From assembly GCA_040388575.1 (NCBI GenBank), contig JAZKBO010000002.1, positions 95,942 to 159,941 of the forward strand: DNA of 64,000 nucleotides, written 5' to 3'. Positions within the stretch are counted from its first letter, which is position 1. Each line of letters starts with the position of its first letter. Shown here piece after piece: positions 125-17,567 of this stretch. A program made the translations under genes and the position numbers. Under the pieces are notes generated by a model, which did no database searches, was not told where the DNA came from, and worked only from the letters and a program-made list of their open reading frames with translations. The stretch is from Patescibacteria group bacterium (GTDB taxonomy: Bacteria; Patescibacteriota; Minisyncoccia; Phycocordibacterales; UBA9973).

Positions 125-1354
125 TTATTTTATGCCTGGCCAATTTTTTAATAATTCAACAGCTTTGTCTAATTGTGGATCCTTCTTTTCATCGCCATCA
201 GCCTTGGTGAAGTCTACTGCGTAGTCAGGTGTTAAGCCTTTCTTAGATATTGAAGTACCGTTTGGAGTTAGCCATTTAGCTACCGTAATTTTAAGCAAAG
301 TGTCAGGTGTAATGTTTACTACTTCCTGCACGGAGCCCTTACCATAGCTTTGGGCGCCTACAAGTAACGCTTGCTTGTGGTCTTGCATTGCACCGGCGAG
401 AATTTCGGAAGCGGAAGCAGAGCCACCATCCATCAAAATTACAAATTTCAATTTGCCCTTAAATATATCATAGCCCTTACTCCTAAATATATTTGGCTTT
501 TGTGCAGTGCCGTAGTCCTCTGTCACGATAACCTGCCCACTTGGTAGGAACCAGCTTGCCATATCAACAGCTGCGTTTAAGTAGCCACCTGGGTTACCCC
601 TCAAGTCCAGCACCAACTTGTCAGTATGGGCGTCAGCAAACTCTTTAATTGCATTTCTAAATAGTTGCGAGGAAGTAGCTGAAAAGCTGTAGAGTCTTAT
701 TACAAAAACTCCATCTTTACGCATTTCAGTATCAAGCGTCGGGATATTTATGGTGTCGCGCACAATCTTGACCACACGAGCCTCACTTTCACCTTCACGG
801 AAAATAGTTAAGGAAACGGTGGTGCCTTTTTCTCCTCGAATTAATTTAATCGCTTCATCTATCGTCATATTGTTGGTAATAGTGTCATCAATTTTCAGAA
901 TTTTATCACCTGGCTTCATTCCGGCCTTTTCCGCTGGCGAACCCTTAACTGGTGAAACTACAGTCAAAACTTTATCTTTAATGCCTACCTCCATACCAAT
1001 TCCCGTAAAGCTGCCGGCTATATCTGCTTCGAAGGATTTAGCCTCATCTGGCTTGAAAAATACACTATAAGGGTCATTCAAAGAGCCTAGAAGGCCTGAA
1101 ATTGCTCCATATACCCTATCCTGGTCAGTTACCTTATCGGCGCCAGGATACTTCTCATCAATCAAATTCCAGACTTTCCAGAAATTCGTTAGGTCAACTT
1201 GCTCGGCTTTACTGGCTGTATTACCGTTAAAAACTGCTGCAGCTTTGCTGATGGCTAGCTGATTACTGAAGCCGATATAAATACCCAGGAAGAAAAATCC
1301 TGCAACAAAAATAACCGCGATGATTTTACGTTTTGTTTTATAAAATTCCTTCAT
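125..1354 (-). CDS. Carboxyl-terminal processing peptidase (S41 family, Ctp/Prc-like) with PDZ domain; N-terminal TM anchor
   Basis: Motifs GIGMEVG (PDZ), DLRGNPGG, GSASASEI and SYGKGSVQ are typical of S41 tail-specific proteases. There is an N-terminal hydrophobic segment. Confidence 0.85.
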   Translation of the reverse strand: MKEFYKTKRKIIAVIFVAGFFFLGIYIGFSNQLAISKAAAVFNGNTASKAEQVDLTNFWKVWNLIDEKYPGADKVTDQDRVYGAISGLLGSLNDPYSVFFKPDEAKSFEADIAGSFTGIGMEVGIKDKVLTVVSPVKGSPAEKAGMKPGDKILKIDDTITNNMTIDEAIKLIRGEKGTTVSLTIFREGESEARVVKIVRDTINIPTLDTEMRKDGVFVIRLYSFSATSSQLFRNAIKEFADAHTDKLVLDLRGNPGGYLNAAVDMASWFLPSGQVIVTEDYGTAQKPNIFRSKGYDIFKGKLKFVILMDGGSASASEILAGAMQDHKQALLVGAQSYGKGSVQEVVNITPDTLLKITVAKWLTPNGTSISKKGLTPDYAVDFTKADGDEKKDPQLDKAVELLKNWPGIK

Positions 1355-1359
1355 ACTAA

Positions 1360-1587
1360 TTATGCGCTATCTGAAACTGCACCCCCGAAGTCTCTATTTT
1401 CAGAAAAATTATCAAACTGCTTTTTACCTTCCTTCATTTTATGTTCCTTGTATAATACGAAAGCTACATAAATAACAGCTATGCCAGAAAGTGAAAGAAG
1501 AATATTTTTCCAGAAGTATGGAAAGCCAAGATATGGCAATAATGCGACCCACACACCTAGTGCTAAAAGCACTCTTATTTTACGCAT
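1360..1587 (-). CDS. Small membrane protein (2 predicted TM), unknown function
   Basis: 75-aa ORF with two hydrophobic helices. It is tightly packed between the CAP-domain protein gene and ctp on the same strand. Confidence 0.35.
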   Translation of the reverse strand: MRKIRVLLALGVWVALLPYLGFPYFWKNILLSLSGIAVIYVAFVLYKEHKMKEGKKQFDNFSENRDFGGAVSDSA

Positions 1588-1610: not shown

Positions 1611-2654
1611 CTAGTATGCAACGATGACGCTGGCAGAGAGGTTGTCAGTCGGAACTTCAACATCAGGATGAAGCAACTTAACATTGGTATAAAATAGAAA
1701 GACGATTACAGCAATAAGCGCTACCCCACGAGCGATGACTGCAGGATGCTGAATTTCAGACTTTATGAAAATTGCCATAAGTAAAGCAAGAATAATTATT
1801 ATACCCACAAGCTCATAGGCATAATTTATGGATGTAAGCGGTGAGGTTATGATTTTTTGCATTAATTGTTTTATTCTCGATTGGTTAGAAGCTTTTTCTG
1901 CAACTGCGCTTGGAGTAGGACTGCTTTGCTCACCTAGTACTTGGAGTGGTGCCCTAGTAGGTGTTTGATTTTGAGTTAATGTGGTTGTTGGCCTTGGAGT
2001 AGGTTTGGGAGCGGGTTTAGGTGCTGGAGTTGTTGGAGTAGGTGTAGCTGTCGTGGGCGCAGGGGTAGGCTTAGGAATTACCCTTAATGGAGTGCCGAAA
2101 AATTGTGCAACGAAGATAGTATCGCGGCCCTTATATGTACCGTTGGCCACGCCTATGCCAATTTCCGTAAAGCCATCCTTGAGTATATTGGCTCGGTGGG
2201 TTGGCGAATTCATCCATGCCTGGTCCACATCACCTGACTCATAAAAATTAACTGCAAGGTTCTCTCCGGCCATAGTGTAGTTATAGCCCACGACATCCAG
2301 CCAGTGCCAAGGAGTTATGCCAGCCGGGCTTGTGTGAGCGAAGTAGCCGAGGGTTGCCATATCATGAGCTTTTAACTCTGCAGCTTTCTGTAATAAATCA
2401 TTATGCTTGAGCGGCGGCAGGTTGTTAGCCTCACGATCATCATTGGCGAGTGAAGTGAGTACACCCGGCAACACAGCAGCGAGGAATTTAGTTTTATCAA
2501 AAACGATAAATACTTGAGCCAGAAATCCTAACTCAACAATAATAACTACGAGGAAGACTGCCAGCATGGATTCGTGTCGGAGAAAATGAGGTTTATATTC
2601 GTTACCTTCGTGCGGGATGAAGTATTTTTGTAGCCACTTGAATACTCGTTTCAT
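1611..2654 (-). CDS. Membrane-anchored CAP/SCP (PR-1-like) domain protein with Pro/Thr-rich linker
   Basis: CAP-domain signature segments YFAHTSPAGITPWHWL...GENLA...WMNSPTHRANIL. These are followed by a PT-rich low-complexity linker (PKPTPAPTTATPTPTTPAPKPAPKPTPRPTTT) and C-terminal hydrophobic helices. Confidence 0.7.
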   Translation of the reverse strand: MKRVFKWLQKYFIPHEGNEYKPHFLRHESMLAVFLVVIIVELGFLAQVFIVFDKTKFLAAVLPGVLTSLANDDREANNLPPLKHNDLLQKAAELKAHDMATLGYFAHTSPAGITPWHWLDVVGYNYTMAGENLAVNFYESGDVDQAWMNSPTHRANILKDGFTEIGIGVANGTYKGRDTIFVAQFFGTPLRVIPKPTPAPTTATPTPTTPAPKPAPKPTPRPTTTLTQNQTPTRAPLQVLGEQSSPTPSAVAEKASNQSRIKQLMQKIITSPLTSINYAYELVGIIIILALLMAIFIKSEIQHPAVIARGVALIAVIVFLFYTNVKLLHPDVEVPTDNLSASVIVAY

Positions 2655-2728: not shown

Positions 2729-3328
2729 CTATTTGGAGGAAAGTACCGCAGTAACCACTAGCCTTTTATCGTGAGTTTTATATTGCGAAACCCAGCTTCC
2801 AGTACAGGTAATGAGCCGCAAAAGCTTGGCATCTTTTTCTTTGAAAACATTCGTACCTTTATCATTAAAGTCATAAGTATCTACCGCACTGACTATGAAA
2901 TGCAGCCTCTCCCCTCCTACTGTCGCCACGTACACATCATCACCAATACTCAAATCTTTTAAATTAGAAAATACACCTGGTAACGACAAACCATTGTCCA
3001 CGTGTCCAGCCATAACTGCGCTACCTAGTTGCCCTGGTAAAATCCCATATCTATACCAACCTACATCAGAGTAGTTAGTGGGTGTGCCCATATTTCCCCT
3101 ACTGGTAATTCCTACGTCAGTAATTTTGGCTTGCACATTAATCTTGGGGATCGAGAGCGTAACTGGATATAGAGCAGAGTCCTTGTTCGCGAGAGCTTCA
3201 TCAGTTACTCCAGGAGGTAGTGGAATTTCATCAGTGGCCGCATAGAAAACGGCTCGGTATAAAGTAATACAGAATATCACTGCCGCCAGGACTGTAATTA
3301 ATATTACAAGTTCTCTTTTATACTTCAT
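2729..3328 (-). CDS. Sortase-family transpeptidase
   Basis: N-terminal TM anchor, catalytic His in AGHVD and the TLxTC-type active-site motif LITCTG. It lies immediately downstream (same strand) of an LPRTG-bearing protein. Confidence 0.8.
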   Translation of the reverse strand: MKYKRELVILITVLAAVIFCITLYRAVFYAATDEIPLPPGVTDEALANKDSALYPVTLSIPKINVQAKITDVGITSRGNMGTPTNYSDVGWYRYGILPGQLGSAVMAGHVDNGLSLPGVFSNLKDLSIGDDVYVATVGGERLHFIVSAVDTYDFNDKGTNVFKEKDAKLLRLITCTGSWVSQYKTHDKRLVVTAVLSSK

Positions 3329-3339
3329 GGTCCTCTTTT

Positions 3340-5802
3340 CTAGGAGTTTTTCTTACGAAGTAGGTATGTAGATCCAAGTAGTGTGATAAGTCCCGATAGT
3401 GCAAGTACAAGTATGTTCATTGCTACGTCGCCGCTGCCGGTGCGAGGTAAGCCAACTTCAGCACCGAGGACTTCTCCAGCTGGTGCAGCTGCTAGCTGTC
3501 CGCCGCCGACACCCTGCACATCTGAATCACCTAACACATCTCCATTATTGTTGTTACTTGATCCACCATGATGACCTCCGCCGCCTCCACCACCACCATT
3601 GCCGTTGTCGGTAGTATCTTCAGTTAATATATTACTTATTACACACTTTTCATTCCAAACTATAATATATTGATCAGACGTAATATTTGTAAGTGCTGGA
3701 GCAGTATTAGTTTGAGATGCAGCTTCTGCAAATGCTTGAGTTGCGCCTGTGCTATAGCCAACTAATCGGAACTTACCTTCTACACATGTACCTCCGATAG
3801 GGAGAACATTACTCGTATTGTCTGTGATCTCGCTCGTAGTGTAGGCAGATCCGGTGGCCATGGCAGCAGTATCAGCGCCATATAAGTCTGCAGCGCCGCC
3901 GAAATTTTCACCAAGGGTGTATGTACCTGTACCTTGTACACCGCCTCCTATATTGGAAGCAGTCCAAGTAGCTGTCATTGGGAAATCATATCCGCTTGCT
4001 GAAGTATCAGTAGCCAATGATCCATCTAGATATTTAAGAACATGAATTTTTACGGTTTCATCACCAAGGACTTGTCCGCAAAGTTTATTTACAACTATTA
4101 TGAATTTATTTGAAGTAATATTTGTCAGGCTAGCAGTGGAAACTGTAGCAGAGGCTAGTGCCAAAGCCTCAGTATCCCCGATTTTATAACCCTCTACCAT
4201 ATATTGGCCTTGATTATTGGCAGTGCATGATGTAGCTACATTATTTTCTGAAGTACTGTAATTAGATCCGGAAGGCATTAGCGCAGTAGTAGCTTCATAT
4301 GCATCTGGATTATTAAATCCTGTTGATCCCAGGTTGAAGTCGCCTTCACCTCCTGGATACACAGCATGCATAGAGAATGTGGCATTGGTGGTATTTACTG
4401 TGGAGGCATGACTAAGCCCGTTAGCGTCGATGAATTTTTCAATTGTTACAGTAACGTCTGCCGGTGGCGGAGTTACACATTCGTTGTTATTGATTGAGAG
4501 TTTGTATAGCAATCCTGCAGGGTTACTAGATGCATCTTGCGGGAAATCAGCGTGGCCGGCACCATGTACCCAGTTGGTTGCTGTGATTTCTATCGTGTTG
4601 GATCCTGTGTGTAACTGCGGAAGTACATTATATGTTTGCTGAGCAGCAAAAGTATTTCCGTTCACTGTTTCGGAGCCAACTGTAATTCCATTAACTTTCG
4701 CAACATAGGTATTATCAGCAGCTATTTCCAGCGATCCACTTGTAGGGGTACCAACAATGTTGAATGTTTTTGTAAACACCTTGGTAAGGTCATTGCCATC
4801 TGGAAATTGTACTGGGTTAGTTGCCCAGATCCATAATGCAGACGGGATGCTTGCAGTCCAGGCTGGATGAATAAATGAAAGTAGCGCAGCATTGTGGCTA
4901 TCAACCTGGGTGCTAGCGTCACTCATAATTGTGCTCGAAGCATTTATATTACAACCTCCGCCTTCATCCGGAATGCACTCTTCACCCACTAAATGAGTTC
5001 CAGCTGGACACTGTGTAGGTGGAGGTGTGCACATATTACCTTGATTGAAAACATCTCCGTAGTATAAAGTAAAACCTTCAGGGAATGGAACGTTCCAATT
5101 TAGAACTCCGTCTTTGTAGAGGTCAATTTGATATGAACAATTAGGAACATTTATCTGGAAAGTAAGTGAACTACATGGAGGAATAGTTAGTGTTTGGTGG
5201 TCGAAAAGTGTCTGAGTAGTCAGCCATGTGCCATGAGGGTCAAAGTTGGGATCATTAGGAGTATAAGGAGAATATGTTTGATACGATCCAAATGTCACTG
5301 TGATAGCGGCATCTCCCCCATTATGAAATTCTGCATTTGCAGTGCCGTCACCTCCTGTGCCATTGTCCGTAACTGAGCCTCCCGTGCCAGAGATATCACA
5401 TCCCAATGGTCCTGGAGGTGTACATTGATTTAAATTAGTTTGAATTCCTGCAATATCGGGACAGACATCATCACTATTACATGGACCTGATGGCTGTACT
5501 CCTGGATCAGTATCTTCATTTGGGCACGCATCTACTACTTGAGTAATAGGTGCATTGTCTACACACCAGCCATCCTTATCTTCTATCTCACCGCCTGTAT
5601 AAAGAAAATCTCCATGTCCTAGGTGGGCATCGAGTGAAGGTCCTGCGGGAGTATCCATGTATTGCCAGCTTGGCCCAGTTTTGTGGCAGATACTTATTTT
5701 ATTGTTACTATCATTTTCTGCCTGGGCAACTAATGCCATTGTTGTCACTATTATTGCGAACATGACCACTGGCGCTATAAACTTAAATACAATTTTTTTC
5801 AT
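3340..5802 (-). CDS. Large secreted surface protein with C-terminal LPXTG-type sorting signal (LPRTG + TM + RKKNS); Gly/His-rich low-complexity tract; internal tandem domain repeats
   Basis: The C-terminus LPRTGSGDVAMNILVLALSGLITLLGSTYLLRKKNS is a canonical sortase sorting signal. The likely true start is MKKIVFKFIAPVVMFAIIVTTMALVAQA (signal peptide) at about 5802, not the ORF-track start 5913. There is a Cys-rich N-terminal region and the run GNGGGGGGGGHHGGSSNNNNG. The segment ...TNITSNKFIIVVNKLC repeats as ...TNITSDQYIIVWNEKC. Confidence 0.75.
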   Translation of the reverse strand: MKKIVFKFIAPVVMFAIIVTTMALVAQAENDSNNKISICHKTGPSWQYMDTPAGPSLDAHLGHGDFLYTGGEIEDKDGWCVDNAPITQVVDACPNEDTDPGVQPSGPCNSDDVCPDIAGIQTNLNQCTPPGPLGCDISGTGGSVTDNGTGGDGTANAEFHNGGDAAITVTFGSYQTYSPYTPNDPNFDPHGTWLTTQTLFDHQTLTIPPCSSLTFQINVPNCSYQIDLYKDGVLNWNVPFPEGFTLYYGDVFNQGNMCTPPPTQCPAGTHLVGEECIPDEGGGCNINASSTIMSDASTQVDSHNAALLSFIHPAWTASIPSALWIWATNPVQFPDGNDLTKVFTKTFNIVGTPTSGSLEIAADNTYVAKVNGITVGSETVNGNTFAAQQTYNVLPQLHTGSNTIEITATNWVHGAGHADFPQDASSNPAGLLYKLSINNNECVTPPPADVTVTIEKFIDANGLSHASTVNTTNATFSMHAVYPGGEGDFNLGSTGFNNPDAYEATTALMPSGSNYSTSENNVATSCTANNQGQYMVEGYKIGDTEALALASATVSTASLTNITSNKFIIVVNKLCGQVLGDETVKIHVLKYLDGSLATDTSASGYDFPMTATWTASNIGGGVQGTGTYTLGENFGGAADLYGADTAAMATGSAYTTSEITDNTSNVLPIGGTCVEGKFRLVGYSTGATQAFAEAASQTNTAPALTNITSDQYIIVWNEKCVISNILTEDTTDNGNGGGGGGGGHHGGSSNNNNGDVLGDSDVQGVGGGQLAAAPAGEVLGAEVGLPRTGSGDVAMNILVLALSGLITLLGSTYLLRKKNS

Positions 5803-5965
5803 AAAATAACTTACGTTAATTATTAATAATTTTTTAAAAATAGACAACGAACTTACACCTACAGAGTACCACATAAACCATAGAACATCAAAAAGGTAGT
5901 TTTTCCACAACAAAGCACCTTCACATAAGACGTGTGAAGTAAAATTAAATTACAACGGTTTAACC

Positions 5966-6304
5966 CTAGAAAGTAAAGTAATGAGCCAAACTACCCACTA
6001 CTGGCAGCTCCTTTTCATTGCCCCCTACTACATTGATTATCCCAATAATTGCTAGGACTAAAAGACAAAGGTGAATGAGGTTAAATAATGGCAACATAGC
6101 CCATAAAAACATGCCACTAAAGAGCACTGAAATAATAACTTCGATACAGAATAATACTAAGCCCTGTTTGGCATGAAATTTAACAAAGGGGTCATCCTTC
6201 TTTACTAAAAGTGAAATAATTACTAGTGGCCCAAGATAAGATAAAATTCCAAATATCGTCCTATCCCCTCCTTTAACAACTGGTGCATTATTTTGTGGAT
6301 CCAT
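5966..6304 (-). CDS. DUF4870-like small membrane protein
   Basis: About 3 TM helices. The ILSYLGPLVIISLL...FVKFHAKQGL pattern is reminiscent of DUF4870/PF09685 (recollection, not searched). Confidence 0.45.
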   Translation of the reverse strand: MDPQNNAPVVKGGDRTIFGILSYLGPLVIISLLVKKDDPFVKFHAKQGLVLFCIEVIISVLFSGMFLWAMLPLFNLIHLCLLVLAIIGIINVVGGNEKELPVVGSLAHYFTF

Positions 6305-6347
6305 AATTTATAATTATGATTAATAATATTATCGATAATTATAGCAA

Positions 6348-6382
6348 AAAAACAAAAAACCGCAATTTGCGGCTTTTTGTTA
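6348..6382 (-). terminator. Rho-independent terminator hairpin (A-run / CCGCA-ATT-TGCGG / T-run), bidirectional in form
   Basis: Reading the minus strand, the GC hairpin followed by a U-run lies 16-40 nt downstream of the metalloprotease stop (6398). Confidence 0.5.
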
Positions 6383-6397
6383 GATAACACTTTATAC

Positions 6398-7210
6398 TTA
6401 GTAAAGTTTGCTTATACCTGCAATGTCTCCGGCGTTTAAGTCCCTCTTTTTAGTTTCACCATTTGCTCCATAAGCGTACATAGTCTCATCCACACATGTG
6501 CTTGCTGGGTGGTCCATACCTACTGCGTGGCCTACTTCATGAGTAGAAATGTTTTCGAAGTCCATTTTAGTTGACTCACCTGTTAGTGACCACTGGAAGT
6601 TGGTATTGAACACTTGATCCCACTCCACTATTACTTGGTTTTGTACAGGACCTGAAAATATACCCCAAACGATAGTAACCGCAATGGTATTAGCATCAGC
6701 TATAGGACCGAAGTAAACCTCGTTTAGTCCATCGGTAGTTGTGTTGTCAGCTACTAGAGTGTTCGATGTTATTGCACCATTACCCATAATGTTGAAGTGA
6801 GATGCATCTTCCCATTTTTGAATATCATTCGCCTCAGTATTAAATAGAGTATTAGTATCAAGGCCGAAAGAATTAGTAGGGTTCATAACCCACCCTTCTG
6901 CTGTTCCTTTCCACTTAGCACCACCACCTGCACCCATGAATGCATAACAAGTACTAGGACCTGGCTTTTTAGAATTTACTGAAGCACTTGCACTTTTAGC
7001 TGGATCTTTTTTATGAACAAAGGCATAGCCCTCTACCATGGAGTCACTTTGCTTATCATAAGTTGTTCCTAAACTGAAAACATCCTGCGCTACTTGTGAA
7101 GCATTAGCAGGCAATTCAAAATCTTTATGCGAATTATTTGGCGCAGCCATCACTGGACTTGCCACAAAGACTATTGATAAGAAAACTGCAAACAAAGATT
7201 TTTTACTCAT
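6398..7210 (-). CDS. Secreted zinc metalloprotease, metzincin/matrixin-like
   Basis: Signal peptide MSKKSLFAVFLSIVFVASPVMAAP. Zinc-binding HExxHxxGxxH motif (HEVGHAVGMDH) followed by a Met-turn (ETMYAY). Confidence 0.75.
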   Translation of the reverse strand: MSKKSLFAVFLSIVFVASPVMAAPNNSHKDFELPANASQVAQDVFSLGTTYDKQSDSMVEGYAFVHKKDPAKSASASVNSKKPGPSTCYAFMGAGGGAKWKGTAEGWVMNPTNSFGLDTNTLFNTEANDIQKWEDASHFNIMGNGAITSNTLVADNTTTDGLNEVYFGPIADANTIAVTIVWGIFSGPVQNQVIVEWDQVFNTNFQWSLTGESTKMDFENISTHEVGHAVGMDHPASTCVDETMYAYGANGETKKRDLNAGDIAGISKLY

Positions 7211-7295
7211 AGATATTATTATATTTAATTTATTAATAATAGTAAACTTCTTATCATTATATACTATATTTAGATAAAAGTCAAGAGTAACAAAA

Positions 7296-7321
7296 AAGCC
7301 CCATTTTGGGGCCTTTTTGCG
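7296..7321 (-). terminator. Rho-independent terminator (A6-GCCCC-ATTTT-GGGGC-T5)
   Basis: Perfect 5-bp GC stem flanked by an A-run and a T-run, 20-45 nt downstream of the minus-strand stop at 7341. Confidence 0.6.
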
Positions 7322-7340
7322 GTCGTCCTATATTTAGTTT

Positions 7341-8624
7341 TTAGTGTTTACCTGCGTGTGGATTTGCTTGAACGTAGCTCACACACTGACCCTGATTCTT
7401 AAATGTTGGGCTGGTGAATGACTTCCATCCATCTGCCCTACATTGATCCTTGTCAGTTGGTGCACCTGATGTGGTATCAGCTGCAAAGTTCGCGGTAACA
7501 GATATGTTCGCTTGAACATTAGTATCTGTTCTTGGATTTGCAGTTGAGGCGTCAGACCAATTAACGAAGTGATAACCTGCATTACCTACTGCAGTTACAG
7601 CTGTACCATTAGCACCTTGGTTTACAGTTTGTGGGGATGTGCCGGAAATAGTTCCGTTGGCACCAGCGGTGTAAGTCAAGGTGTATTGGGTGACAGTATT
7701 AGGAGAGGTAGTGAAATTCAATTCCGCACCTGGATACCATGTACCCCCTACATTGGACCATGCTACAAAGTAGTAAGTCGTGTTTGGAGTAACTGCAGGC
7801 ATATTACTTGGAACTCCGCTTGTCGTAAGTGAAGATAGCAAAGCAGAGAAAGCAGTATTTCCAGCTATAGCACCCATGTCAGGAGTTGAGTAAACTCCAG
7901 CTGGGATACTTGGACTAGCAGTACTGAACGGACTTGTGGAAACCCAGAATGAGTGACCGACAGCTGCATTAGGCCCATTGGTACCATTTAGTGTTGCATC
8001 AGTTGAAGTTATGCCAGTTGCGGGATTAGTTGTAACATTGTCAGCAACTACACTTCCTAAATGAATGTTGCTCACTGTCCATGAGCCCGCATCATCAGCA
8101 ATAATAAACGGTACATCGGTACTGACTTTATATGTTGGAAAAGCTGCAACGAATGCTGCCCAGCCAGTATAACCACCAACGTCTCCACCTGTGATGAATA
8201 TTTTACAGTTAGGGTCATTGATAGGATCTACAAGATTACTTCCGCTAGTGCAGAGATTTGCGCCAATGAATGCATAAACATCAGTCGTACCATTTGCATC
8301 AGTGTCTATTGGAAGACTGATTCTTGGTGAGCCAGCCGTAGGGGTGCCAGTATAAGTAAACGAGAGCTGATCTGTACCCACTTGAGCAAGAGTCTTGCCG
8401 GTTAGAGTACTTGTAGGCGTATAAACTCCAGAGTAAGAGCCATCAGGGTCCCCACCAGAATTATCTAGTGTGGCAGTGCCTGCAGCTATTGAACAATTAC
8501 CGCCGTAGATGGTAACGTCAGAAACTCCACTAAAACATGTTAATGGATTTGGCGCAGCGTTGACTGAAAATGCAAAGCCTAAAGCGATAAGGGTAGCTAT
8601 TGATAATAGAGTTAATTTTTTCAT
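7341..8624 (-). CDS. Secreted Ser/Thr/Gly-rich surface protein with C-terminal Flg_new (Listeria-Bacteroides/InlB B-type) repeat
   Basis: Signal peptide MKKLTLLSIATLIALGFAFSVNA. The segment YTLTYTAGANGTISGTSPQTVNQGANGTAVTAVGNAGYHFVNWSD fits the Flg_new repeat pattern (Y.v.fdangG......v..G......P.r.GY.F.gW). Confidence 0.6.
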   Translation of the reverse strand: MKKLTLLSIATLIALGFAFSVNAAPNPLTCFSGVSDVTIYGGNCSIAAGTATLDNSGGDPDGSYSGVYTPTSTLTGKTLAQVGTDQLSFTYTGTPTAGSPRISLPIDTDANGTTDVYAFIGANLCTSGSNLVDPINDPNCKIFITGGDVGGYTGWAAFVAAFPTYKVSTDVPFIIADDAGSWTVSNIHLGSVVADNVTTNPATGITSTDATLNGTNGPNAAVGHSFWVSTSPFSTASPSIPAGVYSTPDMGAIAGNTAFSALLSSLTTSGVPSNMPAVTPNTTYYFVAWSNVGGTWYPGAELNFTTSPNTVTQYTLTYTAGANGTISGTSPQTVNQGANGTAVTAVGNAGYHFVNWSDASTANPRTDTNVQANISVTANFAADTTSGAPTDKDQCRADGWKSFTSPTFKNQGQCVSYVQANPHAGKH

Positions 8625-8763
8625 AATATTTTTCTTGATTAAGTTAATAATTAATAATGATAAATTTTAATAATGTCATTTAAGATCTGTAAGCCAAACA
8701 ATCGCCATAATTGGCCTCATAAACTAAGACGAAATTAAGGCGGTATTATTGCAGAACTAGGCA

Positions 8764-8792
8764 TTGTCAGTTAGAAATTTATGTAGTATAAT
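8764..8792 (+). promoter_or_regulatory. Sigma70-like promoter TTGTCA-N17-TATAAT with ATG 9 nt downstream (leaderless-type)
   Basis: TTGTCA (8764-8769), 17-nt spacer, TATAAT (8787-8792). The core 'ATGTAGTATAATCT' is identical to the promoter at 38140-38168. Confidence 0.5.
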
Positions 8793-8801
8793 CTGTTTTT
8801 T

Positions 8802-9200
8802 ATGGAGCTAATTGATAAAAAATCCTGGTATAAGAAAAAAAGGTATATTATTCCTGTAATTGCCCTAAGTTTAATACTTTTTTTTGGGTCAAATAATGGT
8901 TCAAGTCCTCAAGTAAAATCTGAGTCTATACCTATTCCATCTTATGGCAGTAATGTTCCATTATATGAATCTACTAATACTGTAAATTTAAATACAAATT
9001 CGTTTTCACCTACTCCATCAAGTGCTCTTTCAAATGATAATTACTACACAAACGTAAATGGTAATTCAGTTCACTCACCTGCATATTCTAATTCCGTACC
9101 ACAAGGAGCATCAGCTCGGTGCGGAGACGGCACATACAGCTATAGTCAACATCGAAGTGGAACATGTTCACATCACGGCGGCGTTTCCGAGTGGTTATAA
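8802..9200 (+). CDS. Membrane-anchored protein with C-terminal DUF3761-like Cys/His domain
   Basis: N-terminal TM (IIPVIALSLILFF) followed by an S/T/N-rich linker. The C-terminal ARCGDGTYSYSQHRSGTCSHHGGVSEWL matches the DUF3761 signature from memory. Confidence 0.5.
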   Translation: MELIDKKSWYKKKRYIIPVIALSLILFFGSNNGSSPQVKSESIPIPSYGSNVPLYESTNTVNLNTNSFSPTPSSALSNDNYYTNVNGNSVHSPAYSNSVPQGASARCGDGTYSYSQHRSGTCSHHGGVSEWL

Positions 9201-9212
9201 TGTCATGAGGAA

Positions 9213-9272
9213 TTAACCAACTAATGCTCCGATACCAACAATAAACAAGATATAACCTAAAAAGTTTTTCAT
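9213..9272 (-). CDS. Tiny hydrophobic peptide (19 aa, MKNFLGYILFIVGIGALVG), last cistron of AT-rich island operon
   Basis: Hand-translated; below the ORF-track size cutoff. The start lies 2 nt after the preceding cistron's stop. Single TM-like segment. Confidence 0.2.
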   Translation of the reverse strand: MKNFLGYILFIVGIGALVG

Positions 9273-9274
9273 AT

Positions 9275-9448
9275 TTATTCAGATTTATCTTTTTTAATCA
9301 AGTTAATGATTTCAATCTGCTTTCCTAAAATAAAAGCAAGAATTAACATCACGAGTCCTTCAAAACCTCTATTATCTCCAATAATAAAATACGAAAGAAT
9401 TAAAACTATTATTGTCCAAACCCATGGATTCTCATTCCAATTTTTCAT
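9275..9448 (-). CDS. Small 2-TM membrane peptide (57 aa, MKNWNENPWVWTIIVLILSYFIIGDNRGFEGLVMLILAFILGKQIEIINLIKKDKSE)
   Basis: Hand-translated. Its ATG overlaps the upstream cistron's TGA stop (ATGA overlap at 9445-9448). It has two hydrophobic helices. Confidence 0.35.
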   Translation of the reverse strand: MKNWNENPWVWTIIVLILSYFIIGDNRGFEGLVMLILAFILGKQIEIINLIKKDKSE

Positions 9449-9834
9449 ATAATTTTACTCAAAAAATCCTTACCTAATAAATATTTAAAACGTTTGTTAA
9501 TCTCATTTATTTGAACTAACTTTTCATTTATTTGGGATAAAATATATTCTTTATTTGATTTTCTTAGATTAATTACATCATTTATTATGATTAAATAATC
9601 ATACCAATCAGACTTAATTTGTTCTGACCATGTATTATCATGTTTAAATCTCTCCTTAAGTCTAATAAAATTTTGCCTACCGCTGTTAAACAATAGCTCT
9701 TCTTCGACTACTTCAACTCCAGTTAGCTTTTTCGAAATAAAAACCTCCATAATTATTATCTTTTTGTTGTTTTTTCCTAAAAGTAAATTTTTTAGTTTCA
9801 GGATTATTCCATTATAAATTGATAGTTTTTCCAT
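9445..9834 (-). CDS. Hypothetical protein (129 aa; alternative start MEVFISKK...), AT-rich island
   Basis: ORF in a very AT-rich segment, translationally coupled to neighbours. No recognisable motif. Confidence 0.4.
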   Translation of the reverse strand: MEKLSIYNGIILKLKNLLLGKNNKKIIIMEVFISKKLTGVEVVEEELLFNSGRQNFIRLKERFKHDNTWSEQIKSDWYDYLIIINDVINLRKSNKEYILSQINEKLVQINEINKRFKYLLGKDFLSKII

Positions 9835-9848
9835 AATTATTATTGTTA

Positions 9849-10391
9849 TTATCTCTTCTTTCCTATAAATGCTGGCTGCTTATTTTTCTTTGCTTCAATT
9901 ATATTGCTCATATTTGCGTTAGGTATGAAATTTATTCTTTCCGAAGAAGGCATCCTAAAGGATAGGGCGGTTTTACCGTTATAAGTGGTAACAGCAAAAT
10001 CACCCATACTAATGATATCCATACCAATTAGTAATTGAGGCTGTTCTTCTTCTTTTTGATTATCATCTGGAATGAGCTTTACCTCAGAAACGCGAACTCC
10101 CTCAAATAGAACTTTATTTGGTAAAGATATACTAACTAGATAGGTATTAACCAAGGATTTCCCATCAGCATGACGACTTTCTGCTATTCCAGATGGCGAT
10201 AATTTTAAATTATTAACAACTTTTTTTGTAATTGCAGAATTTGTTGCTCCAGTATCCCAAATTGCATTATATTCCTTAAAAATTGGAGGGTTATTTAATC
10301 TTTCCTGAGGTGTAGAGGGAACACAAACCCCAACTTTAGTGTAAAGGACTCTTGCTCTACCACTATAATCTGTAGTAAAAGCATGTTTCAT
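9849..10391 (-). CDS. Retropepsin-like (clan AA, DTGA-type) aspartic protease, soluble
   Basis: Active-site block YNAIWDTGATNSAI (hydrophobic-hydrophobic-D-T-G-A) and a downstream LLIGMDII block (the retropepsin 'ILGrD.L' motif). The likely start is MKHAFTTDYSG at about 10391, which overlaps the upstream small ORF's end. Confidence 0.65.
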   Translation of the reverse strand: MKHAFTTDYSGRARVLYTKVGVCVPSTPQERLNNPPIFKEYNAIWDTGATNSAITKKVVNNLKLSPSGIAESRHADGKSLVNTYLVSISLPNKVLFEGVRVSEVKLIPDDNQKEEEQPQLLIGMDIISMGDFAVTTYNGKTALSFRMPSSERINFIPNANMSNIIEAKKNKQPAFIGKKR

Positions 10392-10395
10392 AAAG

Positions 10396-10647
10396 CTAGA
10401 AGAGAGAAACTCTTGAATGAAAAGTTTGAGTGTAGCTTTCCTCACCAGGTAGGCATTTTTGAATAAGAAAAGTCCCTAATTCAAATTTTGCTTTAGCATC
10501 GATATAGGCTTCTATCTCTGAGTTATAAACTCCTTGTATCTTCTTATCTTTGATAACAAGAAATTTACCCCCATGTTGTTTTACAAGGTCTTCTTGATTG
10601 TCTTTAAAATATTCAAGTTCCTGCTCAAGATGTTTATTAATCACCAT
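10396..10647 (-). CDS. Small cytosolic protein (83 aa), possibly DUF5678-like; first cistron of island operon
   Basis: Pattern ...QHGGKFLVIKDKKIQGVYNSEIEAYIDAKAKF...FLIQKC resembles the small GKWVAI.DgKVv..gd..eE...a DUF5678-type fold (recollection, low certainty). Its 3' end overlaps the protease start. Confidence 0.45.
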   Translation of the reverse strand: MVINKHLEQELEYFKDNQEDLVKQHGGKFLVIKDKKIQGVYNSEIEAYIDAKAKFELGTFLIQKCLPGEESYTQTFHSRVSLF

Positions 10648-10822
10648 GTAATATTAACATATATTTATTAGCATTTCAATTCATCTCTGGCGATAAGAAA
10701 TATAGCAAACATTGCCCGCTTAGGCATATTTTATATTTTTTAAGGCATTAAAACTCCCAAAGACCCAGCTTTCTAACTGCCACCCCTATGAGATAATATG
10801 TCCACTAAATTTCTTAGCACAA

Positions 10823-11555: not shown

Positions 11556-13244
11556 TTAGCTTTGGAAATATTCTGGGGTATTTACTGACATCCAGTCCAG
11601 GAGCTGGCGCATGACGGTGGAGGCATTTACACTGTTGGTGGTGGGCCCAGACTCCATCATTATAGTAAAGGCGTATTTCGGGTTTTCATATGGCAAGAAG
11701 CCCATCACCCAGGAATTAACTTTATTCTTCAGCGCACCCACCTGGGCAGTTCCAGTTTTAACTGCCACATTCACATAAGGAACATTGAGGGCTGACGCCG
11801 TACCTGCCGTCACTGCTTGTCGCATACCCTCTCGCACTATTTGAAAATATTCTTTATTCATATCAATGGCTGTTGTTTTTCCTTCCATTGTTTTGTCGTT
11901 AAGTATGAAATGTGGAGTCATGAGTGTGCCAGAGTTAGCAATTGCTCCGGCTGCTCGCGCCATTTCCATCGGCGTTACTTGGAAGCCATACTGGCCGATG
12001 GCGGTATGGTAAGTGTCCCCAATACGCCACGCGTCCCCATTAAAATTTTTCAACTTCCACTCAGGGGTCGGTATCGTGCCATTGGTTTCATCTGGTAAAT
12101 CTACACCTGTCTCTGTGCCGAGTCCAAAAAGGCGCGCATATTTTTCAATATTTAAAATTCCCAAGCCTTTCTGATCCTGATAGCCACCACCGATAGAATA
12201 AAAATAGACATCCGAGGATACTGCTATTGCCTGCCGCATGTCAGTCCAACCATTAGCCCGCCAGTCCTTGAAGACAGTCTTCTGGCCCGGGAGGAATGGG
12301 TTAGGGATGGATATAGAGCCCGTAGAGAGTATCTGTTTCTTGGGGTCGATAATGTTCTCTGCCAAGGCACCTAGGGCCACGAAGGGCTTCACGATGGAGC
12401 CAGGAGTATACAGGCCCGAGATGGTACGGTCCAGATACACCTTCCGCTTGTCGGTGTTGTAGCCACTAATTACAGCGCTATCCTTGCCCAAGGAAAGGGT
12501 TTCAGAGTTGTATTCAGGGTAACTAGTAGAGGCTAGTACTTCACCATTTTGTACGTTCATTATAACTCCAGCGCCGCCGGAAAAGGAAAAGTTATCGGCT
12601 AAATTTTTAATAATACTGAATAACTCACCTTGGACCTTCGCATCAACTGTAGTTACCAGGTCCTGACCGCGAGCCGGCGCATTCACAATATTTTCAGAAT
12701 GGACGGAATCGTGCGCATCAACTTCAATAATTTTAGAGCCATTCTCACCTTTTACCACATCATTGTATTGTTTTTCGAGGCCATCTTTTCCCACAAATTC
12801 AGTTTGCCAATAATTACCTGACTTATCTTTCGCTGGGTAACTCACATAGCCCAGTAAATGTGAAAAGCCAGGTGTTTTATAGGCGCGCATCCTGAAACCA
12901 TCCTCCTCATCTTTGTTCCAAACGAGTTCTACCTTGTTACGGTCATAGATAATGCCTCTGTCAGCGAAGATCAAGCTTTTTTCTAGGATATTATTTTCAC
13001 TCCTATTGTAGTAAGCATTTCCGGAAGCGATTTGAAGATAACCCAGGCGAATAAAGAAAATTAAGATTAATGATCCGCAGATAATTCCGAGTACACCGAT
13101 GGTTTTCTTGGTAATAGGCTTTTCGATGCGGCCCTCGAATTGCTGGCGGTCAAAATTTTGAATATTTTTTGAATCCAGGAATATTTCATCCGGCTCCACC
13201 ATCATATTTTGTCTTTTTCTTTTTTTAAATATTCTTACGATCAT
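11556..13244 (-). CDS. Class B penicillin-binding protein (PBP2/FtsI-type peptidoglycan transpeptidase)
   Basis: N-terminal TM. The three transpeptidase motifs are present: SxxK (GSIVKP), SxN-like (SSD in AVSSDVYFY) and KTG (KTGTAQ). The start is probably MIVRIFKK (about 13244) or MMVEPDE, not 13292. Confidence 0.85.
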   Translation of the reverse strand: MIVRIFKKRKRQNMMVEPDEIFLDSKNIQNFDRQQFEGRIEKPITKKTIGVLGIICGSLILIFFIRLGYLQIASGNAYYNRSENNILEKSLIFADRGIIYDRNKVELVWNKDEEDGFRMRAYKTPGFSHLLGYVSYPAKDKSGNYWQTEFVGKDGLEKQYNDVVKGENGSKIIEVDAHDSVHSENIVNAPARGQDLVTTVDAKVQGELFSIIKNLADNFSFSGGAGVIMNVQNGEVLASTSYPEYNSETLSLGKDSAVISGYNTDKRKVYLDRTISGLYTPGSIVKPFVALGALAENIIDPKKQILSTGSISIPNPFLPGQKTVFKDWRANGWTDMRQAIAVSSDVYFYSIGGGYQDQKGLGILNIEKYARLFGLGTETGVDLPDETNGTIPTPEWKLKNFNGDAWRIGDTYHTAIGQYGFQVTPMEMARAAGAIANSGTLMTPHFILNDKTMEGKTTAIDMNKEYFQIVREGMRQAVTAGTASALNVPYVNVAVKTGTAQVGALKNKVNSWVMGFLPYENPKYAFTIMMESGPTTNSVNASTVMRQLLDWMSVNTPEYFQS

Positions 13245-13248
13245 AAAA

Positions 13249-13518
13249 TTATATTTGCGGATAGAACTTGAGCTTTCTTTTAAGAAATTCAATTAATACT
13301 ATGGCGATGACAGCCATTATGAATGATACATAGGTCAAGCCCCAGAATTTAGCTTCAGGCGTGCCATATATCAGGTCAGAAAGGAGGAAAAGTGCCACTC
13401 CCTCCCAATAGACACGAAAATATAGCATTGCTATTAGGGCTAGAATAACAGGGAGCCAAAAAGGCAGGAAAAGTATAGAAATAAGTAGCACAGCTCCGGC
13501 AATGATTCGAAGTATCAT
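13249..13518 (-). CDS. Small 3-TM membrane protein immediately upstream of the PBP gene (MreD-like position, unverified)
   Basis: 89-aa hydrophobic ORF on the same strand, abutting the PBP gene. No diagnostic motif. Confidence 0.3.
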   Translation of the reverse strand: MILRIIAGAVLLISILFLPFWLPVILALIAMLYFRVYWEGVALFLLSDLIYGTPEAKFWGLTYVSFIMAVIAIVLIEFLKRKLKFYPQI

Positions 13519-13542: not shown

Positions 13543-14907
13543 TTATGACGCGAGTTTAGATGCTAAACCGATATAATTTAGCGGGGTAAATTTTTTAAGC
13601 TCCTTTTTGACCTTAGGTGATACTTCCAGGGTATCGATAAATCTATCGAAATCCATCATAGTTACAACCTTACCCCGAGTTAATTCTTTGAGTGCCTCAT
13701 AAGGCATTGCAGCACCCTCTCGGCGCAGTACTGTCTGAATAGCTTCCGCGATTACCTCTGGGTGGGCAACTAAGTACTCCTTAATCGCTTTATCGTTTAT
13801 TGAAATTTTACCTAGTCCCTTCCTTAACATAATATATGCAAGGTAGGAATGGCCGAATGCGGTACCAAATGCGCGTTCCACAGTTGAGTCTGATAAATCA
13901 CGTTGGAGTCGAGAGACTGGCAACTTGCGAGCAAAAAATTCAAAAAACGCATTTGCTAGGCCCAGATTTCCTTCACTATTTTCAAAATCAATCGGGTTCA
14001 CCTTATGGGGCATGGTTGAAGAGCCTGTCTCCCCTGCTTTTGGCTTTTGAATTATCCAGCCGTCGGAAATATATCTCCACATATCTTGATCGAAATCTAG
14101 GAGGACCGCATTAATCCTGCGAATATTATCAAATACTGCGATATAACTATCGTGGCATTCAATTTGAGTTGTGATCAGGTTGGTCTCAAGCTTTTGTTTG
14201 CGATTTTTATTAAATCCATTAATAAATTTCACAGAGAATTCCCGCCAATTGACTTTGGGATATGCGGCAACGTGAGCGTTGTAGTTACCTGTCGCACCAT
14301 TTAACTTAGCTTGAATTTTTAGGTCAGCCAAGCTTGTTAACATCTTTTCAATTCTTGCTGAAAAAACTTTCATTTCCTTACCAAAAGTTGTCGGGCTCGC
14401 GCTTTGGCCGTGCGTACGAGCAAGCATGGGGAGGTTTTTGTACCTCTTTGCAAGGCCGTTTAATTCAAGGACGATTTTTCCAATTTCTGGAGCAATTATC
14501 TTTTCGATCGAATCCGCAAGCATGAGGGCATAAGCAATATTATTGGTGTCTTCAGATGTCAGGGCAAAGTGGACCCACTCGATTGAATCTTTGAGTGAAG
14601 TTTTTTCAAGGATTTGCTTAATATAATACTCCACTGCCTTAACATCATGGTTTGTGGTTTTTTCAAATTCTTTTATCTTCTGGTATGCAGAGTCATTAAA
14701 CTTTTCATAAATATTGCGCAAGATCTTAACTTCAGCCGGTTTGAATCTACGCAGGGCGGTTTTGTTTAAGAAGGATAAGCTAATCAAATACTCACATTCC
14801 ATCAGAACGCGGTACTTCATGAGTGCCTGCTCTGAAAAATATGGAGCTAGGGCTCGGGTCTTTTCAAAATATCTGCCATCTAGTGGATTTATTGCACCCT
14901 GGATCAT
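13543..14907 (-). CDS. purB: Adenylosuccinate lyase
   Basis: Fumarate-lyase signature GSSTMPHKVNP and the overall ASL pattern. Sits in the purine cluster. Confidence 0.9.
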   Translation of the reverse strand: MIQGAINPLDGRYFEKTRALAPYFSEQALMKYRVLMECEYLISLSFLNKTALRRFKPAEVKILRNIYEKFNDSAYQKIKEFEKTTNHDVKAVEYYIKQILEKTSLKDSIEWVHFALTSEDTNNIAYALMLADSIEKIIAPEIGKIVLELNGLAKRYKNLPMLARTHGQSASPTTFGKEMKVFSARIEKMLTSLADLKIQAKLNGATGNYNAHVAAYPKVNWREFSVKFINGFNKNRKQKLETNLITTQIECHDSYIAVFDNIRRINAVLLDFDQDMWRYISDGWIIQKPKAGETGSSTMPHKVNPIDFENSEGNLGLANAFFEFFARKLPVSRLQRDLSDSTVERAFGTAFGHSYLAYIMLRKGLGKISINDKAIKEYLVAHPEVIAEAIQTVLRREGAAMPYEALKELTRGKVVTMMDFDRFIDTLEVSPKVKKELKKFTPLNYIGLASKLAS

Positions 14908-15869
14908 ATTTTGTAGGCCTTAAGGTTATTTTCAATACGCTCCAAAATATTTTCACCCAAATTTGCCTTAAACTTATTACCAGTTATCTGCTCGTATATT
15001 TGAATGTATCGGCGTGAAAGCTCTGCCACCATATCTATCGGCGCAGCTGGCAGCTTTTCATCTTTATAAGGGTCACAATTATCCTTGAACCATAGGCGCA
15101 GGAATTCCTTGTCGAAATTCTGTGGCTCTTGCCCCTGATCAATACGCTCCTGGTAGGAATCCGCTTGCCAGTAGCGGGAAGAATCCGGAGTATGGATTTC
15201 ATCGATAAGCATAACTTCACCTTCCGGTGTGAGGCCGAACTCATATTTAGTATCAACCAGTATCAACCCTCTTTTAAGCGCCAATTCTTGGCCGCGGACA
15301 AAGAGCTTGAGGGTAATATCGCAAACCTTGTCCCAGACTTCCTTATTAATCATCTTTTCCTCCAAAATAATTTTAGATGTCAGCGGCCTGTCATGGGCTT
15401 CAAACTTTGTAGTTGGAGTTATCACTGCTCTATCTAGTTTTTGATTTTTTTTCATTCCTTCAGGAAGAGTAAAATCACCGAAATCTCGCTGACCCTTTTG
15501 GTATAAAGTCCATAGTGCTGTGCCAGTGACACCGGTAATATAGCCACGGACTACCATTTCAACTGGTAGCACCGTGCACTTCTTTGCAACTATGGAATTT
15601 GGATCAGGAATGGCAATAACGTGATTCTGGACTATGTCCTTAGTATTATCGAACCAAAATTCTGTAATACCTGTTAGAACCTGGCCCTTAAATGGAATGA
15701 GTGCAAGGTTGCGATCAAAAGCAGAGTATCTATCCGTAGCAATTAAAATTAATTTATCATCTTGCTCATAAACATCGCGAACCTTACCCACCTTTTTCTT
15801 ACCCAAGGAATCAAAATTGGTTTCAATCAATACATCATTAATATGCTCTTCTATTGTTCGTATATCCAT
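14904..15869 (-). CDS. purC: SAICAR synthetase, long (eukaryote/yeast-like ~320 aa) form
   Basis: GKVRDVY...LIATDRYSAFD motifs of PurC. At 321 aa it is the long form rather than the ~240-aa bacterial form. Confidence 0.85.
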   Translation of the reverse strand: MDIRTIEEHINDVLIETNFDSLGKKKVGKVRDVYEQDDKLILIATDRYSAFDRNLALIPFKGQVLTGITEFWFDNTKDIVQNHVIAIPDPNSIVAKKCTVLPVEMVVRGYITGVTGTALWTLYQKGQRDFGDFTLPEGMKKNQKLDRAVITPTTKFEAHDRPLTSKIILEEKMINKEVWDKVCDITLKLFVRGQELALKRGLILVDTKYEFGLTPEGEVMLIDEIHTPDSSRYWQADSYQERIDQGQEPQNFDKEFLRLWFKDNCDPYKDEKLPAAPIDMVAELSRRYIQIYEQITGNKFKANLGENILERIENNLKAYKI

Positions 15870-15872
15870 AAA

Positions 15873-17036: not shown

Positions 17037-17039
17037 GGG

Positions 17040-17567
17040 TTAATTTTCTAAATATTTTTTAAAACCTATTTCTGAAAGTTTGTCGCCCTTAGCCATAACC
17101 TCACTATTCATCTTTTCACGGAAAGTCACAATTTGGCCGTCTAGGCTTTTATCCGATAAAGCTAAAATTTGCATAGCCAGGAGTCCTGCATTCTTGCCAG
17201 CATTAATGGCCACAGTGGCCACAGGTATGCCTGGTGGCATTTGAATGATGGATAGCAAAGAATCCATTCCCTCCATAGTTTTGGTCTTGATTGGTACTCC
17301 TATTACCGGCACTGTTGTCATTGCAGCAGTCATACCTGGTAAATGTGCCGAGCCTCCAGCGCCAGCTATAATAATTTTTATGCCTCTTTCCTTTGCAGTA
17401 GTGGCATATTTATAGAGTTTGTCGGGAGTACGGTGGGCAGAGACAACTGTCATTTCATATTTAACATTAAATTCTTCTAGAATTTTTGCAGCTTCACTCA
17501 TTACAGGCAGGTCAGAGTCTGACCCCATAATTATTCCAATTTGTATCCTACTTTTTTTACTTGTCAT
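17040..17567 (-). CDS. purE: N5-carboxyaminoimidazole ribonucleotide mutase
   Basis: [24 protein letters not shown] and [11 protein letters not shown] are hallmark PurE segments. Confidence 0.9.

Follow-up and report, generated by a model that had tools for sequence, protein, structure and literature searches.

A class-F-like sortase and an adjacent LPRTG surface protein in a hypervariable locus of a Patescibacteria genome

Patescibacteria are mostly uncultured, and the cultivated members live attached to other microbes; how they recognize and hold their partners is, to our knowledge, largely obscure beyond type IV pili. We describe a sortase locus from a Patescibacteria group bacterium (GTDB lineage Bacteria; Patescibacteriota; Minisyncoccia; Phycocordibacterales; UBA9973). 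The window, meaning the whole stretch of 64,000 nucleotides (64 kb) analyzed here, covers positions 95,942 to 159,941 of the forward strand of contig JAZKBO010000002.1 (GenBank assembly GCA_040388575.1). The functional unit at this locus is probably a pair of genes, encoding an 820-amino-acid (aa) surface protein and its cognate class-F-like sortase, set in a hypervariable slot. The genes lie on the minus strand in the order Flg_new_2 protein, M10 metzincin, DUF4870 protein, LPRTG surface protein, sortase, CAP protein, 75-aa membrane protein, and S41 protease, and the proteins of the locus are identical to NCBI entries MES2315372-77. The features are as follows:

7341-8624, minus strand: secreted Flg_new_2 (InlB B-repeat-like) protein with one such domain (Pfam E=1.1e-13)
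6398-7210, minus strand: secreted M10-type metzincin (Peptidase_M10 39.4 bits, motif HEVGHAVGMDH)
5966-6304, minus strand: DUF4870 membrane protein (35 bits against a cut-off of 25)
5819-5847, minus strand: promoter-like site 5' of the surface-protein ATG, matching 9 of 12 positions (consensus match only; the weakest element listed)
3340-5802, minus strand: surface protein gene, 820 aa, with signal peptide and LPRTG (open reading frame, ORF; identical to MES2315374.1)
2729-3328, minus strand: class-F-like sortase, 199 aa (Pfam Sortase E=1.4e-20)
1611-2654, minus strand: CAP/YkwD-like polytopic membrane protein (Pfam CAP E=1.3e-15)
1360-1587, minus strand: 75-aa protein with two transmembrane (TM) helices, 23 nucleotides (nt) after the CAP gene
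125-1354, minus strand: S41 C-terminal processing protease, 5 nt after the gene for the 75-aa protein

A sequence-only reading of this DNA had named six of these genes, and they are borne out: all lie on the minus strand, and every motif that it quoted is present. It bounded the locus at 2729-8624, an interval that holds five of the six; the CAP gene (1611-2654) falls just outside. The length of 857 aa that it gave the surface protein is that of the longest ORF, which begins at a TTG at 5913, and the likely protein is the 820-aa product of the ATG at 5802. We prefer this start because the signal peptide (MKKIVFKF...LVAQA, residues 1-28) begins there, and residues are numbered from it. The proposal that the LPRTG protein is the sole sortase substrate of the window agrees with our scan: the 64 kb hold a single LPxTG-type tail, a single sortase, and a single CAP gene.

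The sortase is a clear member of its Pfam family (PF04203, 73.7 bits against a cut-off of 26.6). Its His109 (in AGHVD), Cys175 (in LITC/LITCTG), and Arg189 are invariant in 33 aligned homologs, and its only membrane helix is N-terminal. Among the NCBIfam class models, class F (NF033748) is the best at 115 bits, compared with 30-32 bits for class D, 27 for class C, and 26 for class E, and NCBI names the protein "class F sortase." We call it class-F-like rather than class F because its 115 bits stay below the class F cut-off of 166; on these model scores, that is the name that suits it best. A pilus or sporulation class, which would have spoken against the pairing, does not fit: the enzyme is closest to class F and belongs to neither. 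The one characterized class F enzyme, SrtF of Cutibacterium acnes, recognizes LPXTG (PMC8225981). From this enzyme and from the adjacent LPRTG substrate, we predict that the window's sortase is specific for LPXTG, and that it would act as a transpeptidase onto peptidoglycan. A literature search on sortases in Patescibacteria, or the Candidate Phyla Radiation (CPR), found passing mentions only.

The pairing of the two genes is evident from their arrangement and from its conservation. The sortase start codon lies 11 nt past the stop codon of the substrate gene, preceded by the ribosome-binding site AAGAGGA. A scan of species-representative genomes gave 80 sortase-centered loci, at 39-55% identity and all from Paceibacteria-type lineages; ORF calling in related loci is crude, so that counts from them are approximate. 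In 43 of 60 cases, the gene immediately 5' of the sortase homolog on its strand encodes an xPxTG tail, and this pairing exceeds chance. The tails share the pattern P-G-[LFVI]-P-x-T-G-x-G-G-[ND], then N-I-L-L, S-G-L, and basic residues. Spacer and tail together (residues 740-817) are 43% identical over 82 aa to those of the substrate at locus L010 (E=2e-10); the passengers differ. The sequence-only reading had taken sortase and LPRTG protein for a cognate pair and had made its case hang on conservation of the C-terminal segment, and both points are upheld: adjacency and extended sorting signal alike are kept across Paceibacteria loci.

A reciprocal set of 80 metagenome loci centered on CAP homologs reveals what happens when the sortase is absent, which is the usual case, as an adjacent sortase occurs in 6 of the 80. 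The closest relative found, locus L086, shares 71% identity in S41, 66% in CAP, and 71% in DUF4870, and is thus nearer to the window than L003 (S41 57%, CAP 54%). Its gene order is T2SSE-like ATPase, 271-aa secreted protein, DUF4870, 972-aa protein, CAP, small membrane protein, S41, and L9. There is no sortase at the L086 locus, and the 972-aa protein has no BLAST similarity to the surface protein of the window; it carries SpaA-type domains and a PG_binding_1 anchor. Loci L090, L100, L110, L092, and L089 follow the same pattern, with flanks kept and no sortase found. Pfam recognizes PG_binding_1 in the occupants of L086 and L090, and those of L100 and L110 have similar C-terminal sequences. 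Likewise, homologs of the passenger region end either in an LPxTG-type tail or in PG_binding_1.

To judge from these gene orders, the slot between DUF4870 and the block of CAP, small TM protein, S41, and L9 is a hypervariable surface-protein locus, in which sortase and LPxTG tail come and go together and the flanks stay. Across the loci compared, a sortase is present if and only if the tail is LPxTG, a rule that supports a functional pairing. This joint presence and absence of sortase and LPxTG tail is strong comparative support for the pair.

Occupants of the slot differ widely in size. Large mosaic proteins are found mainly in the window's own clade, at 880-900 aa in L003 and at 1694 and 517 aa on a Joint Genome Institute (JGI) contig that carries two substrate-sortase pairs in tandem; large occupants are also seen at a few loci farther away, among them L080 with an LPDTG protein of 1641 aa. 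The usual partner of the sortase in other Paceibacteria is a small protein. A common form has 160-270 aa, with 3-6 tandem repeats of about 28 residues, each with two Cys, followed by LPTTG. The repeat consensus, F-P-x-G-C-[ST]-S-x-x-G-Y-S-x-x-T-G-x-P-C-[NS]-G, has no Pfam match. Proteins of this form are encoded at:

L004, 9421-10014: two-Cys repeat protein
L006, 9446-9925: two-Cys repeat protein
L008, 4443-4940: two-Cys repeat protein
L013, 8114-8599: two-Cys repeat protein
L017, 9300-9989: two-Cys repeat protein
L032, 3517-4173: two-Cys repeat protein
L071, 8960-9760: two-Cys repeat protein

Substrates can be smaller still. Upstream of the sortase in L038 (66 aa), L054 (76), L023 (73), L064 (84), and L083 (85) are minimal proteins made of a signal peptide, 10-40 Thr/Ser-rich residues, and the sorting signal, so that the anchored mature part would be only a short peptide. 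The signal itself also varies among sortase-adjacent substrates: those at L135 2-370 and L142 3-2399 have G-A-P-D-A-G-A-G-G after VLGEQ, and that at L096 1482-3598 has LPATG after GEVKGV. On the JGI contig, P0004 and P0007, whose tails are the closest homologs of the window protein's tail, carry LPRTD in place of LPRTG and lie directly upstream of a sortase, P0085, that is 62% identical to the window's; this lineage may tolerate other residues at position 5 of the motif. In L003, passenger (900 aa, 7168-9870) and LPRTG anchor (a 62-aa ORF, 9837-10025) are in different frames, to be explained by a frameshift, a pseudogene, or a fault in the assembly. The junction, which was inspected for slippage in the Gly-rich spacer, shows no repeat tract.

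The surface protein resolves into a head of several domains, a stalk, a spacer, and a sorting signal. A Pfam and NCBIfam scan of the whole 857-aa ORF product gave nothing useful, and Pfam scans of domain pieces gave only a sub-threshold match to Bac_rhamnosid_N. Its homologs span at most 57% of its length and are mosaic Patescibacteria surface proteins built of shuffled modules. From alignments, AlphaFold2 (AF2) models, and Foldseek comparisons, we delimit the following parts:

5548-5706, minus strand: D1, residues 33-85, N-terminal Cys/His module (alignment A2)
5029-5403, minus strand: D2, residues 134-258, rare beta-rich domain with Cys-rich linkers on both sides (homology, AF2)
4477-4953, minus strand: D3, residues 284-442, CBM67-like lectin or jelly-roll domain (phmmer, Foldseek)
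4078-4458, minus strand: D4, residues 449-575, pilin/CnaB-like Ig domain with Lys456, Glu519, and Asn572 (AF2, Foldseek)
3643-4056, minus strand: D5, residues 583-720, second pilin/CnaB-like Ig domain with Lys590, Glu658, and Asn717 (AF2, Foldseek)
3460-3642, minus strand: Gly/Asn-rich spacer (residues 721-775) and GEVLGA junction (residues 776-781; 3460-3477) (sequence)
3343-3450, minus strand: sorting signal, residues 785-820, with LPRTG at 785-789, hydrophobic span at 795-815, and RKKNS (TIGR01167)

Taken in isolation, the tail scores 20.1 bits against the TIGR01167 LPXTG_anchor model, above its cut-off of 15.9, and 17.8 bits against PF00746, slightly under the cut-off of 20.

D3 is the domain common to most homologs of the surface protein. 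Searched against the PDB with phmmer, it finds a Pleurotus lectin (6t1d/6kbj, 5e-7; 6t1d at 4.5e-7) and the CBM67 domain of the Streptomyces rhamnosidase SaRha78A (3w5m, 3e-6), and Foldseek matches its model to the same CBM67 domain (3w5n) at 6.6e-7. The Bac_rhamnosid_N match noted above is of this domain (18.6 bits, under the cut-off of 25). CBM67-like domains are calcium-dependent lectins for Gal, GalNAc, GlcNAc, or L-Rha (PMC11186620; PMC4690510). In the Pleurotus lectin, two adjacent acidic residues and a Pro make the calcium and sugar site (PMC11512411). Asp363-Asn364 of D3 align with the Asp-Asp of the Pleurotus ostreatus lectin, and conservation is high at Asp363 (86 of 87 domain instances), Asn364 (85 of 87), and Pro428 (all 87). 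D3 is thus a predicted sugar-binding domain, and its binding is probably calcium-dependent.

D4 and D5 form the stalk. Their joint AF2 model has a mean predicted local distance difference test (pLDDT) score of 83.9, and its top Foldseek matches are of the type of the Streptococcus pyogenes major pilin Spy0128 (3b2m, 8f5n; 3.7e-8 to 1e-7), with RrgB, PitB, and the internally cross-linked adhesin of Mobiluncus (5u5o) also found. The Pfam CnaB and SpaA models have no detectable sequence similarity to either domain. All 28 domain instances have the same Lys, Glu, and Asn and the same two Cys, and the model places the Lys in the first strand, the Glu in a central strand, and the Asn in the last. 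This triad is the signature of an isopeptide bond, and each domain probably contains an intramolecular Lys-Asn bond.

The two outer domains are less familiar. D1, a module of some 55 residues in which Cys, His, and Asp are conserved, has the motif K-I-x-I-C-H-x-T-G ... H-L-G-H-G-D-F ... W-C and is modeled as a hairpin and two helices (pLDDT about 90); it may bind metal. It has no Pfam match at E<=10, and a profile of alignment A2 (229 positions; most of the matches listed fall in D1) recovers, at E<=1e-3, 490 proteins out of 1.84 billion representatives. Elsewhere, D1 occurs in tandem repeats of up to 11 copies (among P0208, P0211, P0224, and P0284), and in the small LPNTG protein P0234, it is the sole passenger. 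Homologs of D2 are confined to P0004 and P0007; the L010 substrate resembles it weakly, and its Foldseek matches are weak and Fn3-like only (E about 0.08). Overall, the layout matches a Gram-positive adhesin, with a binding head, a rigid stalk, a spacer, and an anchor for covalent attachment to the wall. The adhesin or Ig-like folds that had been suggested for this protein are thus found in the models, as a CBM67-like lectin fold and pilin-like stalk domains.

The anchoring pathway that we propose is modeled on the established sortase mechanism. The surface protein would be exported through its Sec signal peptide, and its C-terminal hydrophobic span and RKKNS tail would keep it in the membrane; Cys175 of the sortase would then cut LPRTG between Thr and Gly and transfer the protein to a peptidoglycan precursor. 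A PBP2-type transpeptidase is encoded at 11556-13292 in the window, which implies that the organism makes peptidoglycan. Once anchored to the wall, as predicted, the Gly/Asn spacer and the two Ig-like stalk domains would hold out D3, D2, and D1. The likely role of such a protein is to bind a glycan on another cell or surface, which would be its biological target. The locus is a concrete candidate for partner binding, as it offers a predicted covalently wall-anchored protein with a conserved lectin-type head in a fast-changing slot.

Several points weigh against this two-gene reading. The sortase scores below the class F cut-off, the AF2 model of D2 is weak (pLDDT 55-78), and the close homologs P0004 and P0007 have LPRTD where the window protein has LPRTG. 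Counts from related loci carry the error of crude ORF calling. Promoter and terminator calls are consensus matches, which total 30 compared with 26.6 in shuffled sequence and so are not enriched; the predicted signals are consistently placed in intergenic gaps. Our scans covered the 64 kb of the window, and further sortases or substrates may lie elsewhere in the genome. The evidence throughout is computational, consisting of gene content, motifs, conservation, fold similarity, and synteny.

An alternative role for the surface protein is glycan capture, for nutrient scavenging or envelope architecture, with the CBM67-like domain binding environmental polysaccharide or the cell's own wall glycans rather than a partner cell. 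CBM67 and related jelly-rolls occur mainly in glycoside hydrolases (PMC4690510), and no host is known for this organism. The combination of head, stalk, and LPXTG tail is, however, that of an adhesin, and Pfam and NCBIfam scans found no catalytic domain in the surface protein. The hypervariability of the slot fits selection on an interaction surface, although it is compatible with glycan capture too. We regard this alternative as unlikely.

The sequence-only reading went further and grouped sortase, substrate, CAP, metzincin, DUF4870, and Flg_new in one concerted host-interaction module. We give this proposal a low probability. In its favor, L003 and the JGI contig both have M10, substrate, sortase, CAP, small TM protein, and S41 in this order; all 7 CAP matches in the 80 sortase-centered loci lie within two genes of the sortase; and the gene directly upstream of CAP encodes at least 600 aa in 14 of 71 loci, compared with a baseline of 25 of 497 (5%). 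About 22 of those 71 upstream genes encode VLG[AE] followed by a PG-binding or LPxTG anchor, as read by eye from the C-terminal sequences. Moreover, relatives that lack the M10 gene have a different metzincin-like protein upstream (L086 to L090).

Against the module, the genes appear to be transcribed separately. A perfect 12/12 match to the sigma-70 promoter consensus, TTGACA-17-TATAAT, lies between sortase and CAP at 2662-2690; because only about 7 nt separate it from the CAP start codon, the transcript of CAP, small TM protein, and S41 is predicted to be leaderless. The metzincin gene has an 11/12 promoter-like site (7256-7284) and a terminator with a 14-bp stem (6351-6381) and is predicted to be its own transcription unit, and a hairpin lies 3' of the DUF4870 gene. 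Conservation argues in the same direction. Most of the 80 sortase-centered loci lack M10, S41, the small membrane protein, and DUF4870, which occur chiefly in the nearest relatives (L001, L003, and, by Pfam annotation, the JGI contig), with M10 orthologs in L003 and the JGI contig only; none of the relatives' loci compared has Flg_new at this position. The shared order runs on into the genes for L9, L27, an M23 peptidase, and a class I tRNA synthetase (GluRS), which marks it as plain synteny, and the block of CAP, small TM protein, S41, and L9 is kept in L003, L086, L090, and the JGI contig. L086 retains the neighbors without a sortase, which is evidence that they do not depend on one, and the sortase adjoins CAP in only the 6 of 80 loci given above. 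Predicted internal promoters and a predicted terminator, sortase-free relatives, and a Flg_new gene that is not conserved do not amount to a single six-gene operon. We predict from these signals that metzincin, DUF4870, Flg_new, and CAP are separately transcribed, sortase-independent neighbors; the comparison supports the substrate-sortase pair, not a multigene module.

Individually, the neighbors are readily classified. The metzincin reaches 39.4 bits against PF00413 (cut-off 24), through the C-terminal half of the profile only, and has HEVGHAVGMDH followed by the Met-turn ETMYAY, as expected of an M10 matrixin. The metzincin-like protein of the relatives without an M10 gene is a secreted protein of about 270 aa (L086 1571-2386, L087 442-1275, L088 5013-5804, L090 3-428), encoded upstream of the surface-protein or CAP gene. 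Its motif is QEVGHTFGLDH, with the first His replaced by Gln, and the L087 copy has a weak Reprolysin match. The C-terminus of the Flg_new_2 protein (7341-7440) contains the Cys-flanked sequence C-R-A-D-G-W-K-S-F-T-S-P-T-F-K-N-Q-G-Q-C-V-S-Y-V and looks like a separate small module. Finally, the CAP protein scores 58.7 bits against PF00188 (cut-off 21.1), which places it in the family, and 111.6 bits against a YkwD-type model, under the cut-off of 171.

The CAP protein recurs beside anchored surface proteins irrespective of anchor type. The window's copy has an N-terminal KYFIPHEGNEYKPH motif, a TM helix, the CAP domain, a Pro/Thr linker, QVLGE, and two TM helices. This layout is fixed in the family: a cytoplasmic K-K-Y-F-I-P-H-x-x-N-x-x-K-P-H motif, helix, CAP domain, linker, VLG[AE], and two helices. 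In the surface-protein homologs (P0003-P0081), VLG[AEDT] likewise precedes the anchor, in 11 of 12 with an LPxTG-type anchor and in 41 of 41 with a PG_binding-type anchor, and could be a processing or recognition site. A further, doubtful reading combines a hypervariable slot, in which the anchor is swapped as a cassette (LPxTG tail with its own sortase, or PG_binding_1 domain), with CAP, found after anchored surface proteins in roughly 30% of CAP loci, as the dedicated partner of giant anchored proteins. CAP would then serve in their processing, maturation, or attachment, and the adjacent S41 protease could be the enzyme acting at the VLG[AE] junction. If true, Paceibacteria would have an envelope system that has not been described before. 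A literature search on the function of bacterial CAP/YkwD proteins found nothing relevant.

A sortase-assembled pilus, with D4 and D5 polymerized head to tail into a covalent fiber, is very improbable and was rejected: the best D4-D5 Foldseek matches are indeed major pilins (Spy0128, RrgB, PitB), but the same stalk fold is common in non-polymerized adhesins such as 5u5o, the class-F-like sortase (115 bits) reaches only 27 bits against class C, the pilus class with a cut-off of 160, and has an N-terminal TM helix without a C-terminal one, the window holds one sortase and one substrate and no minor pilins, and no YPKN-type pilin motif was seen on reading the sequence.

Two further regions of the window deserve mention. 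At 8000-10650, G+C dips to 0.34 compared with about 0.41 elsewhere. The segment holds the genes for a DUF3761 protein (8802-9200, plus strand) and a retropepsin-like aspartyl protease (9849-10445), along with two further small genes that lack annotation. Relatives carry type IV pilus or type II secretion system (T2SS) genes at this position, and the segment may be inserted or variable. At 13543-29094 (minus strand), Pfam matches reveal a near-complete cluster for de novo purine synthesis (purB, purC, purM, purE, purK, purD, purN, purF, purQ, purL, purA, and guaB). Such a cluster is unusual for a Patescibacterium and qualifies the label "reduced-genome" that the organism had been given.

Taken alone, the sortase-substrate pair of this locus is of an ordinary kind and reveals no new mechanism. 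Its genes are already annotated singly in GenBank; the additions made here are the domain assignment of a "hypothetical" 820-aa protein and the evidence for anchor exchange. The pair resembles the housekeeping sortase/LPXTG systems of Gram-positive bacteria, most closely class F (C. acnes SrtF, Actinobacteria), in its His-Cys-Arg triad, TLxTC-type LITC motif, and N-terminal anchor, and the substrate shares with Gram-positive LPXTG proteins a signal peptide, LPxTG, hydrophobic span, and basic tail. It differs from class F systems in its score (115 versus 166 bits), in having a Patescibacterium as host, and in a lineage-specific sorting signal (G-L-P-x-T-G-x-G-[GD], N-I-L, S-G-L). Unlike a housekeeping sortase with many dispersed substrates, this one is dedicated, within the 64 kb, to a single adjacent substrate gene.

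The stalk is comparable with Spy0128, RrgB, PitB, and 5u5o in its tandem Ig domains, the strand placement of Lys, Glu, and Asn, the LPXTG anchor, and the distal head. In contrast to Gram-positive pilins and adhesins, each stalk domain here has two invariant Cys and no CnaB or SpaA sequence match, and the pilin motif and class C sortase of Gram-positive pilus systems are missing from what was seen here. D3 resembles the SaRha78A CBM67 domain (3W5M/3W5N) and the P. ostreatus lectin (6KBJ/6T1D) in sequence, fold, and aligned calcium and sugar-site positions. It has Asp-Asn where the Pleurotus lectin has Asp-Asp, and it is the passenger of a wall-anchored protein, whereas these two are a glycosidase module and a soluble lectin of a fungus.

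The nearest counterparts are the Patescibacteria mosaics anchored by PG_binding_1. These draw on the same set of modules (D1, D3, D4/D5, DUF642, SpaA-type, DUF11), have the same VLG[AE] junction, and occupy the same genomic slot in L086 and L090. They differ in binding peptidoglycan non-covalently, with no LPxTG tail and no adjacent sortase.

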